Below, in pieces: positions 5,321 to 47,270 of a stretch of DNA of 64,000 nucleotides. Source of the stretch: Bacteroidales bacterium (lineage in GTDB: Bacteria; Bacteroidota; Bacteroidia; Bacteroidales; VadinHA17); NCBI GenBank assembly GCA_016715075.1, contig JADKBK010000005.1:20541-84540 (forward strand). Reading direction: 5' to 3'. Each line of letters begins with the position of its first letter. The first letter of the stretch is position 1. Made by a program: the position numbers and the translations under genes. Below the pieces are notes generated by a model, which was not told the origin of the DNA, ran no database searches, and saw only the letters and a list, made by a program, of their open reading frames with translations.

Positions 5321-5465
5321 GCAGTTGAAAAAGTCCTCTGTGGAACTCTGTGATACCTCTGTGCTCTCTGTGTAAGTTTTTAATTTTTAGTTACACAGAG
5401 ATCCACAGAGAATTCACAGAGGCACACAGAGAAAGACAGTTAGAAGCTGCAACTTTTTCAACAGC
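5321..5465. repeat. Composite palindromic element, 4x CTCTGTG facing 4x CACAGAG
   Basis: CTCTGTG at 5336, 5346, 5357, 5366. CACAGAG at 5394, 5404, 5415, 5425. Outer inverted pair gcagttgaaaaagt / actttttcaacagc. A sister copy lies at 22580-22724. Confidence 0.8.
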
Positions 5466-20511: not shown

Positions 20512-20530
20512 CTGTTTTTTTGCTAAAAAA

Positions 20531-20616
20531 CTACGGAGTTACGCGGAGTTATTACAGAGTTCCACTGTTTAGGCCTCCGTGTTTTACTCCGTGCAACACT
20601 GTGCAACTCCGTGGTT
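20531..20616. repeat. Palindromic box element, opposite polarity (3x NCGGAG/ACAGAG facing 4x CTCCGTG/CACTGTG)
   Basis: ctacggag, acgcggag and ttacagag on the left. ctccgtg, ctccgtg, cactgtg and ctccgtgg on the right. Ends in GTGGTTTTA. Confidence 0.7.
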
Positions 20617-20656
20617 TTATACTATATTTGGTTATTAAACTAAAATAAGTCTTAAG

Positions 20657-21412: not shown

Positions 21413-22539
21413 AAGATTCTGACAAAACAACACAGGTTTCCGCCAAAGGGAGGCTCCTTTCGCTTGATGCGCTCAGAGGTTTCGATATGTTATGGATAAT
21501 AGGCGGAAGTGGCGTAATAACCTCTCTTGCAAAATATACAGATGCGGGCTGGCTTAATTCAATTGCAGCACAGATGCAGCATGTAACCTGGAATGGATTT
21601 CATTTCTATGATCTTATCTTTCCACTGTTCATGTTCATCTCAGGAATAGCAATTCCCTACTCTGTTAAATCGGCATTATCAAAAGATCCATCAAAGAGTA
21701 AGCTCTTACTGAGGTTCTTAAAAAGGATGGTCATCCTATTCATCCTGGGATTATTATATAACGGGGTCTTTCAGGATGGTTTCGCCACTGCCAGATATGC
21801 CAGTGTCCTTGCACAGATAGGAATCGCATACTTCTTTGCTGCGGTCATATATACCTTTTCAGGATCAGTAAAGGCAACAATTTTTTGGATAGCAGGCATT
21901 CTGGCCGGGGTATCGGTAATGCAGTTATTTGTACCTGTGCCTGGTTTTGGGCCGGGTGTTTTTACTCCAGAGGGATCAATAAACGGATATATTGACAGGT
22001 TATACCTGCCAGGCAGACTGGCATATTTCAATGGCATTTTTGATGCCCTAGGGATATTATCAGTTGTTTCTGCCATTGGTATAACACTAATGGGAATAAT
22101 TGCCGGAAAGATATTACAGCACCAAACCTTCTCTGAATATCGAAAAACAGGAATTCTTGCCCTTATTGGGGCGGTTTTGATTCCTGCTGCAGTGCTTCTA
22201 TCTCCTTTCTATCCTATCATAAAAGTCTGTTGGACAACAACATATAACCTGCTGGCCGCTGGAATCAGTTTTATTCTGATAGCTCTCTTTTATCTTATAA
22301 TAGATGTCTGGGGTTATCAGAAATGGTCCTATTTCTTCAGGATAATAGGTATAAATTCAATCTTTATTTACCTGTTCGGAAGAATTGTCCCTGTTGGTGA
22401 AATTACCGGCTTTTTTGTTGGCTGGATAACTAAGCCATTGGGAAGCCTTGGAGAGGTGATCGGGGCATTGGTTATTATAGGTGCAGAATGGTTGTTGCTG
22501 TGGTTTATGTACAAAAAAAAGGTGTTTGTTAAGGTCTGA
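21409..22539 (+). CDS. DUF5009 / heparan-alpha-glucosaminide N-acetyltransferase (HGSNAT)-like polytopic membrane protein
   Basis: [18 protein letters not shown] at the N-terminus and about 10 hydrophobic segments. The start overlaps the DUF1080 stop (ATGA 21409-21412). Confidence 0.65.
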
Positions 22540-22579
22540 TTTAACTGATCTCTTTATTTATTACAGATTCTGTATCTTT

Positions 22580-22724
22580 CTCTGTGAAACTCTGTGCTCC
22601 CGATAGTCATCGGGACTCTGTGATCTCTGTGTAAGTTCTTAGCTTAATATTACACAGAGAGCACAGAGAATACACGGAGTAACACAGAGATAGCTGCAGT
22701 TGCAGAATCGAATTTCTCAACAGC
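22580..22724. repeat. Composite palindromic element, sister of 5321-5465
   Basis: CTCTGTG at 22580, 22590, 22616, 22625. CACAGAG/CACGGAG at 22653, 22662, 22673, 22683. Nested hairpin cccgat/atcggg at 22599-22614. Tail tagctgcag...atttctcaacagc. Confidence 0.8.
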
Positions 22725-22776
22725 ATCCCGGAGTTCTTTATTTAAATAAACTATTAATATTCAAATATATATAATC

Positions 22777-45625: not shown

Positions 45626-46372
45626 CTAAGGTTCATAAATCATTTTTTTTGTCATTCCTCCATCAATTGTAATATTGGTGCCATTAATGAAATTGTTTCC
45701 TTCAGCAGTAATGTAAAGACAGGCACTGGCTACATCCTCTGGTTTACCAACCCTTCCGGAAAGATGCTGCAGATGATCAGCTTCCTTAATAAGGCTGTAA
45801 TTTCCAGTCTCTATCCAGCCAGGGCTGATACAGTTCACCTGGATCAGGTCACAAGAGAATGATGCTGCCATTGAGTGGGTTAGTGCCACTAATCCTCCTT
45901 TTGCAGCTGCATAAGCTTCCGAGTTTGGTTCTGACATAAATGCTCTTGTTGATGAGATATTTACTATAGAGCCGCCACCATGCATTTTCATTATTTTTGC
46001 TGCCTCCCTTGAACAGAGGAAAGCACTGCGGAGATTGGTGTTGATTACTTTATCCCACTCATCAACCGACAGGTCATAGGGCGATTCCCATTTTGATATT
46101 CCGGTATTATTAATCAGGATATCAATAGTACCGAACATCTCTGCTGTTTTTCTGACCATTTCAGTAATTTCATCCGGAGATGTTACATCAGTTTTAATAA
46201 ATATTGCATTGCCTCCATCAGATACTATCAGCTTTTCCGTCTCTTGGCCAGATGCTGTATCTTTCTCAGCGATCACAACAAGGGCTCCTTTTGCTGCATA
46301 GGTTTGAGCAATACAACGACCAATGCCTTTACCTGAACCTGTAACTATAACAACTTTCCCTTCAAATTCCAT
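45626..46372 (-). CDS. SDR-family oxidoreductase (FabG-like)
   Basis: TGSGKGIGR (TGxxxGxG), NNTG, and the S...YAAAK catalytic tetrad region. 248 aa. Confidence 0.9.
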   Translation of the reverse strand: MEFEGKVVIVTGSGKGIGRCIAQTYAAKGALVVIAEKDTASGQETEKLIVSDGGNAIFIKTDVTSPDEITEMVRKTAEMFGTIDILINNTGISKWESPYDLSVDEWDKVINTNLRSAFLCSREAAKIMKMHGGGSIVNISSTRAFMSEPNSEAYAAAKGGLVALTHSMAASFSCDLIQVNCISPGWIETGNYSLIKEADHLQHLSGRVGKPEDVASACLYITAEGNNFINGTNITIDGGMTKKMIYEP

Positions 46373-46515
46373 TTTGGTTTCGTTTGATTCATACTACAAA
46401 ATCCGTAAGAGTAAATTTAGTGATTTCTGCCGGTTTGGAATTGGAAGAAACTCCGGAATATATCAGAATTGAAATGTATCTGAATTGTTAAATTTTCGGG
46501 CATGAACTTTTATTT

Positions 46516-46586
46516 TACCATGGATTACTCGGAGATTTTTTTTACCACGGATTACATGGAGGACACGGAGTAAGCACGGAAAAAAA
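46516..46586. repeat. Left arm of the GxxExxY cassette (CGGAG/CACGGA boxes)
   Basis: ttaccatggattactcggag and tttaccacggattacatggaggacacggagtaagcacgga. accacggatta (46544-46554) is the exact reverse complement of taatccgtggt (46816-46826). Confidence 0.7.
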
Positions 46587-46658
46587 CCCTGAATCAATTT
46601 ATGCCCGGAAAAATAAAAAATCGTAATTCTATTAGTCGTCTCGCTAAAAACTAATAAT

Positions 46659-46797
46659 ATGGAACTACTGTACAGGGAATGAACTGGTACAATCGTGGAC
46701 TGTGCTGTTAACGTTCATAGATTTTTAGGGCCCGGGCTTCTGGAATCAGCGTATGAAGAGTGACTTCAATATAAGTTATACGAATATGTATTAAAAA
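46659..46797 (+). pseudogene. Remnant of a GxxExxY-family protein gene (N-terminal ~45 codons, two in-frame TGA)
   Basis: MELLYRE*TGTIVDCAVNVHRFLGPGLLESAYEE*LQYKLYEYVLK contains the family-defining G-LL-E-SA-Y motif. The ~80 C-terminal residues are absent and the reading frame runs into the right repeat arm. Confidence 0.65.
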
Positions 46798-46798
46798 C

Positions 46799-46840
46799 TT
46801 TCCGTGCTCTCCGTGTAATCCGTGGTTAAATAAAAGAATT
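46799..46840. repeat. Right arm plus conserved tail of the GxxExxY cassette
   Basis: ttccgtg, ctctccgtg, taatccgtggttaaataaaagaatt. The tail is near-identical to ccagtggctaaataaaagaat at 61707-61727. Confidence 0.7.
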
Positions 46841-46841
46841 A

Positions 46842-47270
46842 CTATAAGAATTCACTTTTTAATTTATGATTGCATTTCAGGCAAGTATCCCTGTGTATAC
46901 TCAGATTTGCCCCGCAGTTAGGACAACTCCATTTCATTACCTCATTGGCAAGGAAGGACTCCATTCCGTTTTCCCCTATCGTTTCAAGGTTCCCTATCAG
47001 GCTTGTATGGTATCTTGTCCTGTATCTTTTATCCAGCTGCTTCATCCTCGTGCAAGGGAATTTCTGGCAATCAATGCATAATTTTGACTCTGTTTTTGCC
47101 AGGTTCTCACAGTTCTTAATTCTGCAGCTCATCCTTGATTTCGGAATATTCAGATCTGCATGGCGACATCCGTGACATCTGTTTTTATCTCTTAAATAAG
47201 CTAAACATGTTCCGCAGTTTATTCCGCAGGGTGCTATCAGCTCCTCTGTAAACTTAATCAGCTGTTCCAT
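46842..47270 (-). CDS. Cys-rich DUF3795-like protein
   Basis: CGINCGTCLAYL..NRCHGC, plus further CxxC pairs (CIDCQKFPC, CPNCG, CLKC). 142 aa. Confidence 0.5.
   Translation of the reverse strand: MEQLIKFTEELIAPCGINCGTCLAYLRDKNRCHGCRHADLNIPKSRMSCRIKNCENLAKTESKLCIDCQKFPCTRMKQLDKRYRTRYHTSLIGNLETIGENGMESFLANEVMKWSCPNCGANLSIHRDTCLKCNHKLKSEFL

Follow-up and report, generated by a model that had tools for sequence, protein, structure and literature searches.

A decayed GxxExxY cassette between inverted heptad arrays in a Bacteroidales genome

The locus and its intact ortholog

The stretch of DNA analysed here (the window, 64,000 nucleotides, contig C5:20541-84540 of the Bacteroidales genome G000) contains at positions 46509-46837 the remains of a small gene of the GxxExxY family, which is enclosed by inverted arrays of short repeats and lies between an SDR gene and a gene for a Cys-rich protein. 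An earlier note on this DNA had described the locus as a decayed GxxExxY gene between inverted CACGGA arms. That description is borne out by an intact ortholog at the same site in a second genome of the genus, G006, and the locus is almost certainly a dead copy of a GxxExxY mini-cassette, the broken ortholog of the G006 unit. All genomes compared in this study are draft assemblies.

The left arm (46536..46581, plus strand) was defined by sequence, repeat search and alignment to G006. It begins with a T-run and an ACC terminus, TTTTTTTTAC, and continues with the four phased heptads CACGGAT (46546-52), CATGGAG (46555-61), CACGGAG (46564-70) and CACGGAA (46575-81), which are separated by ta, ga and taag, that is by gaps of 2, 2 and 4 nt. 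The right arm (46800..46837, plus strand, defined in the same way) consists of the three heptads TTCCGTG (46800-06), CTCCGTG (46809-15) and ATCCGTG (46818-24), with ct and ta between them, and the terminus GGTTAAATAAAAG. The arrays of the cassette are thus phased CACGGAN heptads in inverted order which terminate in TTAACC and GGTTAA. Inverted pairs of 34 nt at 85% and of 29 nt at 90% were found between the arms by the repeat search, and the exact 11-nt inverted match noted earlier is present at 46544-46554 and 46816-46826. The pattern CACGGA-N3-CACGGA occurs twice in the 64-kb window, both times in the right arm, where 100 shuffles give an expectation of 0. In the predicted RNA fold of the remnant stretch the arms form the closing stem (z = -5.7); neither a known RNA family (Rfam) nor an intrinsic terminator was found within 46300-46950.

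Between the arms lies the pseudogene remnant (46659..46799, plus strand, codons 1-47), which was identified by profile matches and alignments. The frame from the ATG at 46659 reads MELLYRE-stop-TGTIVDCAVNVHRFLGPGLLESAYEE-stop-LQYKLYEYVLKT, and the two in-frame TGA codons reported before are present at codon 8 (46680-46682) and codon 35 (46761-46763). GPGLLESAY, the GxxExxY motif of helix 2, is retained. The remnant matches positions 2-37 of the 116 positions of TIGR04256 (E = 1.9e-8) with 34.7 bits, which is below the cut-off of 35 because of the truncation, and PF13366 (PDDEXK_3) with 31.5 bits at a cut-off of 22. The D, ExK and QhxxY motifs are missing. As the catalytic core is deleted, what remains at the locus is a fragmentary pseudogene of the family and no functional member of it.

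Among the 40 relatives searched for synteny at the DNA level, G006 is the sole match. It shares the right-hand neighbours, the Cys-rich gene with 78% and a DinB-like gene with 64% amino-acid identity, and the left spacer is homologous. Homologues of the Cys-rich gene in G001, G002, G004, G005, G009, G012 and G033 stand in other contexts with no cassette, and G006 alone is informative. The relatives are about 75-80% identical in genes, and insertion boundaries are therefore coarse.

At the orthologous site G006 carries an intact gene of 125 codons (L002:1095-1472), which starts with MELLYKELTGTIVDCAVTGHRFLGPGLLESAYEECLQYELNGYGLKT and scores 139.4 bits against TIGR04256. The intact unit of about 540 bp is composed of TTAACC, four heptads, a leader of about 75 nt, the gene, four inverted heptads and GGTTAA. 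Its left arm reads TTAACCACGGAT-ta-CACTGAG-at-CACGGAG-agca-CACGGAT, and the left arm of the window copy is orthologous to it in the alignment, where the G006 arm starts with CCACGGAT. The right arm reads ATCCGTG-tatt-CTCCGTG-cc-CTCAGTG-ta-ATCCGTGGTTAA, so that the odd box CACTGAG has its partner CTCAGTG in the opposite arm. The predicted RNA fold of the intact cassette has a z of -7.4 and a perfect terminal helix of 21 bp.

In the base-level alignment to G006 the window copy shows two nonsense changes, TTG to TGA at codon 8 and TGT to TGA at codon 35. In addition 264 bp (G006 L002:1235-1498, pairwise alignment) are absent at a junction at 46798..46799, and the C-terminal two thirds of the protein, noted as missing before, lie in this deletion. 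It removed codons 48-125 together with the stop codon and extends through the 3' spacer into the right arm, where the innermost heptad is lost. The invariant catalytic residues D67, E77, K79 and Q91 all fall inside it. Since G006 is intact at the same site, the cassette is older than the split of the two species and the window copy died in place. The remnant and the G006 ortholog are 81% identical at the protein level, which is near the value of the neighbouring genes, and the inactivation is therefore not very old. The window locus has thus gone part of the way from loaded cassette to gene-less hairpin, and its arms survive and can still pair.

The stops and the deletion could also be errors of metagenome assembly, or the gene could still be functional, with TGA as a sense codon or with read-through. 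Both stops are TGA, and the genome is a draft of 5.36 Mb in 42 contigs with a completeness of 92.8%. However, the neighbouring genes are long open frames under translation table 11, the deletion junction lies in unique sequence within one contig, and even with read-through the 78 C-terminal codons with every catalytic residue would be gone, which makes this explanation extremely improbable. TGA as a sense codon was rejected, as the catalytic two thirds are deleted regardless.

The remaining features of the locus are a leader and a duplicated terminus. The leader (46582..46658, plus strand) was delimited by the G006 alignment and is a putative promoter region; its stretch 46624-46658 (GTAATTCTATTAGTCGTCTCGCTAAAAACTAATAAT) is nearly identical in G006 (L002:1060-1094). 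About 15-20 nt 5' of the ATG the CACGGA-type cassettes of the window and of L002, L023, L024, L028, L032, L044 and L045 contain the motif GTCTCGCTAAA, which is conserved far above the surrounding DNA and may act as part of a promoter or as a signal in the RNA. A partial tandem duplicate of the left terminus, 27 nt long (46509..46535, plus strand; TTTATTTTAC-CATGGAT-ta-CTCGGAG-a; direct repeat of 26 nt at 85%), precedes the left arm. It is absent from the G006 ortholog, which has a single copy in the pairwise alignment. The Cys-rich neighbour (46842-47270, minus strand, 142-143 aa) is characterized by CGINCGTC..., CHGC and CPNCG and gave no NCBIfam match, but seven or more other genomes of the genus encode homologues.

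Cassettes in the genus and in other phyla

The genome of the window encodes one intact GxxExxY gene (C19:9496-9843), which lies between CACAGAG x4 and CTCTGTG x4. An intact gene without arms, the case named beforehand as counter-evidence, was therefore not found in this genome. In the genus the number of GxxExxY copies ranges from 0 to 6 per genome (31 genomes), and nearly every copy has inverted heptad arms. The boxes are of the types CACAGAG, CACGGAG/T, CGCAGRG, CGCAAAG and CACAAAG, the termini are usually TTAACC and GGTTAA, and one cassette uses one box variant throughout.

The site on C19 is shared widely. Between the same two flanking genes a GxxExxY cassette is found in eight species, and the divergence of its protein matches that of the neighbours. 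Four of the eight species have CACAGAG boxes at this site, two have CGCAGRG boxes and two CRCAAAG boxes, and the gene-less element in the spacer next to it is of the same box type as the genome in which it lies. In a maximum-likelihood tree the GxxExxY proteins fall into groups by box type, with supports of 94/95 for the CACGGAT clade, which includes the G006 ortholog of the window locus, 92/92 for CACGGAG, 99/97 for CACAAAG and 99/98 for CGCAGRG together with CRCAAAG. Copies from other sites nest inside the diversity of the C19 site.

Decay is common, as about 8 of 43 loci in the genus carry stops or deletions. G006:C21 and G010:C31 are internal-deletion remnants which are still enclosed by arms. 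At two further orthologous sites one species has a loaded cassette and the other has arms without a gene: G000 C1:325.5k retains only TTTAACCACGGAG...CTCCGTGTTTAA (CACGGAG termini) where L028 of G006 is loaded, and at G000 C2:7107-7273 the arms alone surround a loop of about 45 nt where L043 of G008 is loaded. The suggestion that cargo is lost while arms are kept thus holds at these sites, and it follows from the two pairs that arms outlive the gene. Most likely the GxxExxY gene is of low copy number, mostly vertically inherited at fixed intergenic sites and often lost, and the repeats linger and erode after the loss. The C1 relic is nested (C1:325,540-325,890, L132): a gene-less element with CGCAAAG arms as well as C-rich/G-rich hairpins lie inside the CACGGAG termini.

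We also looked at the protein itself. E27, D67, E77, K79 and Q91 are invariant in an alignment of the intact copies. The AlphaFold model (pLDDT 95) shows an alpha-beta PD-(D/E)XK core, no PDB entry matches the protein by sequence, and the nearest solved folds, Cas4 SSO0001 (PDB 4ic1), LHK-Exo, Bax1 and lambda exonuclease, are all weak matches (TM about 0.45-0.53, E about 3e-3). From this we infer a putative minimal RecB/Cas4-like PD-(D/E)XK nuclease with the motifs E, D, ExK and QhxxY. The function of PF13366 was listed as unknown in a survey of the superfamily from 2012 (PMC3424549).

The arrangement is not restricted to the genus. In 78 relatives from Bacteroidota, Ignavibacteriota, Chlorobiota, Acidobacteriota, Proteobacteria, Planctomycetota, Elusimicrobiota and other phyla we scored arms as at least two exact inverted 6-mers on each side of the gene, with displaced flanks as control. 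Arms were scored for 41 of the 78 relatives, from more than 10 phyla, versus 1 of 66 control flanks, and the inverted words of the 41 are all variants of CRCRRAG. Two culturable species, Aequorivita vitellina and Mucilaginibacter psychrotolerans, are carriers of relatives (L085, L087). If a run of CRCRRAG boxes is called F and a run of their reverse complement R, gene-loaded cassettes in this set occur in both orders, F-gene-R and R-gene-F. Full-text literature searches revealed no paper in which GxxExxY or PF13366 is connected with arrays of repeats, and repeat-bounded GxxExxY cassettes are apparently undescribed so far.

A second type of cargo is found in cassettes of the same layout. G000 encodes seven four-helix-bundle (TIGR02436) genes, and each of them is flanked by inverted arrays built from a short tandem unit, which varies from copy to copy. 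The kinship of the GxxExxY locus with the four-helix-bundle cassettes, as proposed in the earlier note, is upheld in this sense. At one tRNA-Glu(ttc) site the two cargoes take each other's place or lie side by side: the cassette of G000 (C20:87,900-88,900, L131) contains a four-helix-bundle gene between TTGCCAACT arrays, and that of G006 at the same site (L045:1150-2000) contains a GxxExxY gene between CACGGRG arms, behind which two TTGCCAACT boxes are left over. A reading as integron-like tandem cassettes was rejected. The cassettes are single and at scattered sites, and a four-helix-bundle gene or a second small cassette gene within 1.5 kb was found at only 2 of 110 loci. No integrase, recombinase or transposase open reading frame was present in or beside the cassettes examined (the window and the G006 flanks).

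The shared layout raises the question whether these units are RNA elements similar to the intervening sequences (IVS) of 23S rRNA. The arms would then form an RNA stem which RNase III cuts on read-through, and the insert would be released or destroyed. The nuclease would leave the repeats alone, and the small gene, GxxExxY here and four-helix-bundle elsewhere, would be carried as a passenger or act as an addiction factor. Several observations fit such an explanation. The arms close long predicted RNA stems in the remnant as well as in G006, the box variants are mostly purine transitions, a path permitted by G:U pairs, and the family of the four-helix-bundle genes, which have the same layout, includes the 23S IVS protein. 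The two cargo types are also common to one site, and excision of the Coxiella IVS by RNase III is documented (PMC4990558). However, in the regular palindromes described below the heptads alone pair, and the spacers often differ in length and are no more complementary than expected by chance. The arms of G007 pair CACAAAG with CTTTGCG, which results in A.C mismatches in the sense strand of the gene, and CRCRRAG is conserved across phyla beyond the needs of a mere stem. The dispersed gene-less copies in two fixed topologies are left unexplained, and there is no Rfam match. We therefore consider it unlikely that the units are IVS-like RNA elements whose small genes are passengers or addiction factors.

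Gene-less palindromes and arrays

Heptad arrays far outnumber the genes. G000 contains 176 CACAGAG, 102 CGCAAAG, 46 CACAAAG and 39 CACGGAG arrays, and their topology depends on the box. CACAGAG arrays form 48 R-loop-F versus 4 F-loop-R palindromes, CGCAAAG arrays form 31 F-loop-R palindromes, in 27 of which the loop measures exactly 21 nt, versus no R-loop-F, and CACGGAG arrays form three F-loop-R versus no R-loop-F palindromes. The 31 CGCAAAG palindromes are highly regular, with the structure TTAAC-CGCAAAG x4, 21-nt loop, CTTTGCG x4-GTTAA (e.g. C5:276639, C7:240110, C15:71116). Many CGCAAAG and several CACAGAG palindromes of G000 are enclosed by an outer inverted repeat, roughly GGGGCTGTYGAAAAAGTC ... 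GACTTTTTCRACAGCCCC. At G000 C14:165,952-166,011 there are at least six tandem CACGGAG-TTTT units with a period of 11 nt, for which the pattern matches include no inverted partner nearby.

Three palindromes of the window, at 5321, 20531 and 22580, had been proposed to be cassettes that lost their cargo or sites awaiting it. The first and the third of these, 5321 and 22580, show the R-loop-F order (CTCTGTG x4, loop, CACAGAG x4), opposite to the topology of the window cassette. At least 48 copies make up their regular family, which is enclosed by a further, outer inverted repeat. The 22580 palindrome with its flanks, about 230 nt with CTCTGTG boxes, a 21-nt loop and CACAGAG boxes (22535..22765), is absent in the orthologous spacer of G006, which makes it an insertion or deletion of a gene-less unit and not a loss of cargo in place. 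R-loop-F palindromes as gene-deleted cassettes were rejected on the topology and the empty G006 site, and the proposal thus finds no support for these two, which are members of a dispersed gene-less family. The 20531 hairpin (20526..20619), in contrast, has the box family and the topology of the window cassette, with TACGGAG, CGCGGAG, TACAGAG, a 15-nt loop, CTCCGTG, CTCCGTG, CACTGTG and CTCCGTG-GG. To that extent the proposal stands, but a former cargo is only conjectured, as the copy in G006 is gene-less too. Nothing was found in support of sites awaiting cargo.

For the hairpin at 20531, the right arm and the next 30 nt (20575-20640) are about 97% identical in G006, where the flanking genes are 79% identical. 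This stretch includes TATATTTG, which agrees with the -7 promoter motif of Bacteroidota, TAnnTTTG, and the right arm may double as promoter region of the downstream gene.

In the 17 copies with eight perfect boxes the set of spacers is different in each copy, while the spacer lengths keep to 3, 4 and 2-3. The spacers between perfect boxes are complementary at 20% of positions, i.e. at chance level. The conserved feature of the regular palindromes is the heptad with its phasing, and neither a continuous stem nor a master copy. The 21-nt loop (TAACAAA..TAATTAAGAACTTA) of the window palindromes at 5337-5430 and 22581-22688 equals the right plus the left outer flanks of the loaded C19 cassette (C19:9430-9930). 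Judged by this loop, an R-loop-F palindrome looks like abutted cassette ends, as if circularly permuted.

The presence of arrays was compared with that of the gene in 151 genomes of the class, counting a genome as array-bearing if it has at least one triple of CRCRRAG heptads. The gene is found in 100 of these genomes and a triple in 56. Arrays are present in 51 of the 100 gene-bearing versus 5 of the 51 gene-less genomes (odds ratio 9.6, p = 3e-7), and G000 has by far the most triple-heptad matches of all 151 genomes (252). Within the genus, summed array counts are higher in gene-bearing genomes (Mann-Whitney p = 0.009). Tests matched by box colour are weaker: the highest numbers of CACAGAG arrays go with an intact CACAGAG-type gene (p = 0.004), a suggestive relation with clear exceptions.

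Could the arrays simply be host repeats, such as protein-binding sites, terminators or nucleoid elements, which capture small genes by chance or recombination? The remnant would then merely lie between repeats, and the idea of sites awaiting cargo would be part of the same explanation. The excess of arrays over the one intact gene of G000 is in line with it, as are genomes with arrays and without the gene, the existence of nested and mixed arrays, and the 20531 hairpin, which is kept in G006 with its well conserved right arm next to promoter-like sequence. On the other hand, arrays are rare without the gene, gene clade and box type co-diversify, and the TTAACC and GGTTAA termini and the arm layout are conserved with the gene across phyla. 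Only GxxExxY and four-helix-bundle genes were found inside, unlike a random sample, and no integrase or other recombinase adjoins the loci examined. Chance capture of genes by host repeats is therefore quite improbable, and so is the notion of waiting sites that goes with it.

Proposed activity and likeness to known systems

The best explanation overall, which we hold to be moderately probable, is a decayed cassette whose nuclease would have acted on its own heptad arrays. The mechanism that we have in mind is as follows. The GxxExxY nuclease would recognise CRCRRAG arrays spaced by about one helical turn, as duplex or as folded strand, and would cut or resolve at them, by which its own arms would be maintained. 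The same action would maintain or spread gene-less palindromes bearing the same heptad. By analogy, the intact element might work as a heptad-recognising nuclease system similar to RAYT and REPIN, a suggestion to which we give somewhat less than even credence. More doubtful still is the wider generalisation from this analogy, that GxxExxY and CRCRRAG arrays are a second vertically inherited enzyme-repeat partnership in bacteria, with a Cas4-like fold, distributed over more than 10 phyla and with its own box colour in each clade.

A number of points weigh against a nuclease that acts on its own arrays. The literature contains no demonstrated activity, binding or mobility for any GxxExxY protein, and Pfam lists the function as unknown. 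The spacers, different in every copy and complementary only by chance, fit neither copy-and-paste from a master copy nor a simple stem, and no target-site duplication was seen at 22535-22765 versus the empty G006 site, the sole alignable pair of insertion and empty site. The four-helix-bundle genes, which are no nucleases, share the layout with unrelated repeat units, and the layout therefore needs no GxxExxY nuclease. The association of gene and arrays partly reflects the cassettes' own arms, as the colour-matched test for CACGGA changes from p = 0.0004 to p = 0.10 after these arms are subtracted. In addition, no CGCAAAG-type gene accompanies the 102 CGCAAAG arrays of G000, G041 lacks the gene in spite of its many arrays, and in G018 no known CACAGAG-type gene is among the copies whose arms were read, at 92 CACAGAG matches.

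If the partnership is real, the window shows the death of the CACGGAN colour, with a broken gene and a few irregular cognate hairpins, and the CACAGAG colour, whose gene is intact, would have spread to about 180 arrays. Taken by itself, the remnant is a pseudogene, and its value lies in the evolutionary series anchored on it. The locus supplies a time axis, with the cassette intact in one species and broken in another, and the C19 site was held for the age of the genus while all eight boxes changed together. PF13366/TIGR04256 is a very large family of unknown function, and such heptad arrays are common in Bacteroidota and other phyla. Many orphan intergenic hairpins might be explained as fossils or partners of cassettes. 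Arrays of 4 x CACGGAN or 4 x CACAGAG at a phasing of 9-11 nt, together with defined proteins, are suitable substrates for a first biochemistry.

The closest known counterpart is the REPIN-RAYT system (PMC3116915; bioRxiv 10.1101/2021.07.10.451892). In both cases an enzyme gene of low copy number is flanked by its own short palindromic repeats and occupies the same extragenic space across related species (here eight species at the C19 site, and G000 and G006 at the window site). Both have many dispersed gene-less extragenic palindromes with the same repeat and enzyme clades that pair with repeat colours, and in both the gene is often lost while the repeats persist and then erode. They differ in the enzyme, which is here a protein of 120 aa assigned to the PD-(D/E)XK nucleases by profile and predicted fold, whereas RAYT is an IS200-like tyrosine transposase of the HUH/Y1 type. 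The repeat is here an array of 3-4 phased heptads with free spacers and not a single REP hairpin, and the dispersed copies share boxes and differ in their spacers. RAYTs are mainly known from Proteobacteria, while the GxxExxY cassettes occur in Bacteroidota and other phyla, more than 10 in total.

The IVS of 23S rRNA in Coxiella burnetii and Leptospira (PMC4990558) resemble the cassettes in having an open reading frame of 100-130 codons inside terminal inverted repeats that form a long stem, in the size of the element (about 0.4-0.55 kb) and in the reductive decay of the reading frame while the stem is kept. The four-helix-bundle cargo of the sister cassettes belongs to the IVS protein family. 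In contrast to the IVS, the GxxExxY element is located between protein genes and outside rRNA, its cargo is a predicted nuclease, and its arms are phased heptad arrays. Miniature inverted-repeat transposable elements and their parent insertion sequences share with the cassettes the inverted termini, the internal-deletion derivatives with kept ends and the presence/absence polymorphism of gene-less units, as at 22535-22765 versus G006. Here, however, neither a DDE, HUH or serine transposase nor a duplication of the target site was seen, the arm order of the commonest gene-less family is opposite to that of the loaded cassette, and loaded copies are largely vertical and of low copy number. Integron cassettes differ as well, since no integrase open reading frame was found in the flanks examined and GxxExxY cassettes are single at scattered sites. 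With the Cas4/RecB nucleases (SSO0001, PDB 4ic1; lambda exonuclease) the protein shares the motif set E, D, ExK and QhxxY, and these are its nearest predicted folds, but it is half their size, has no iron-sulfur cysteine cluster and no CRISPR context, and the structural match is weak.

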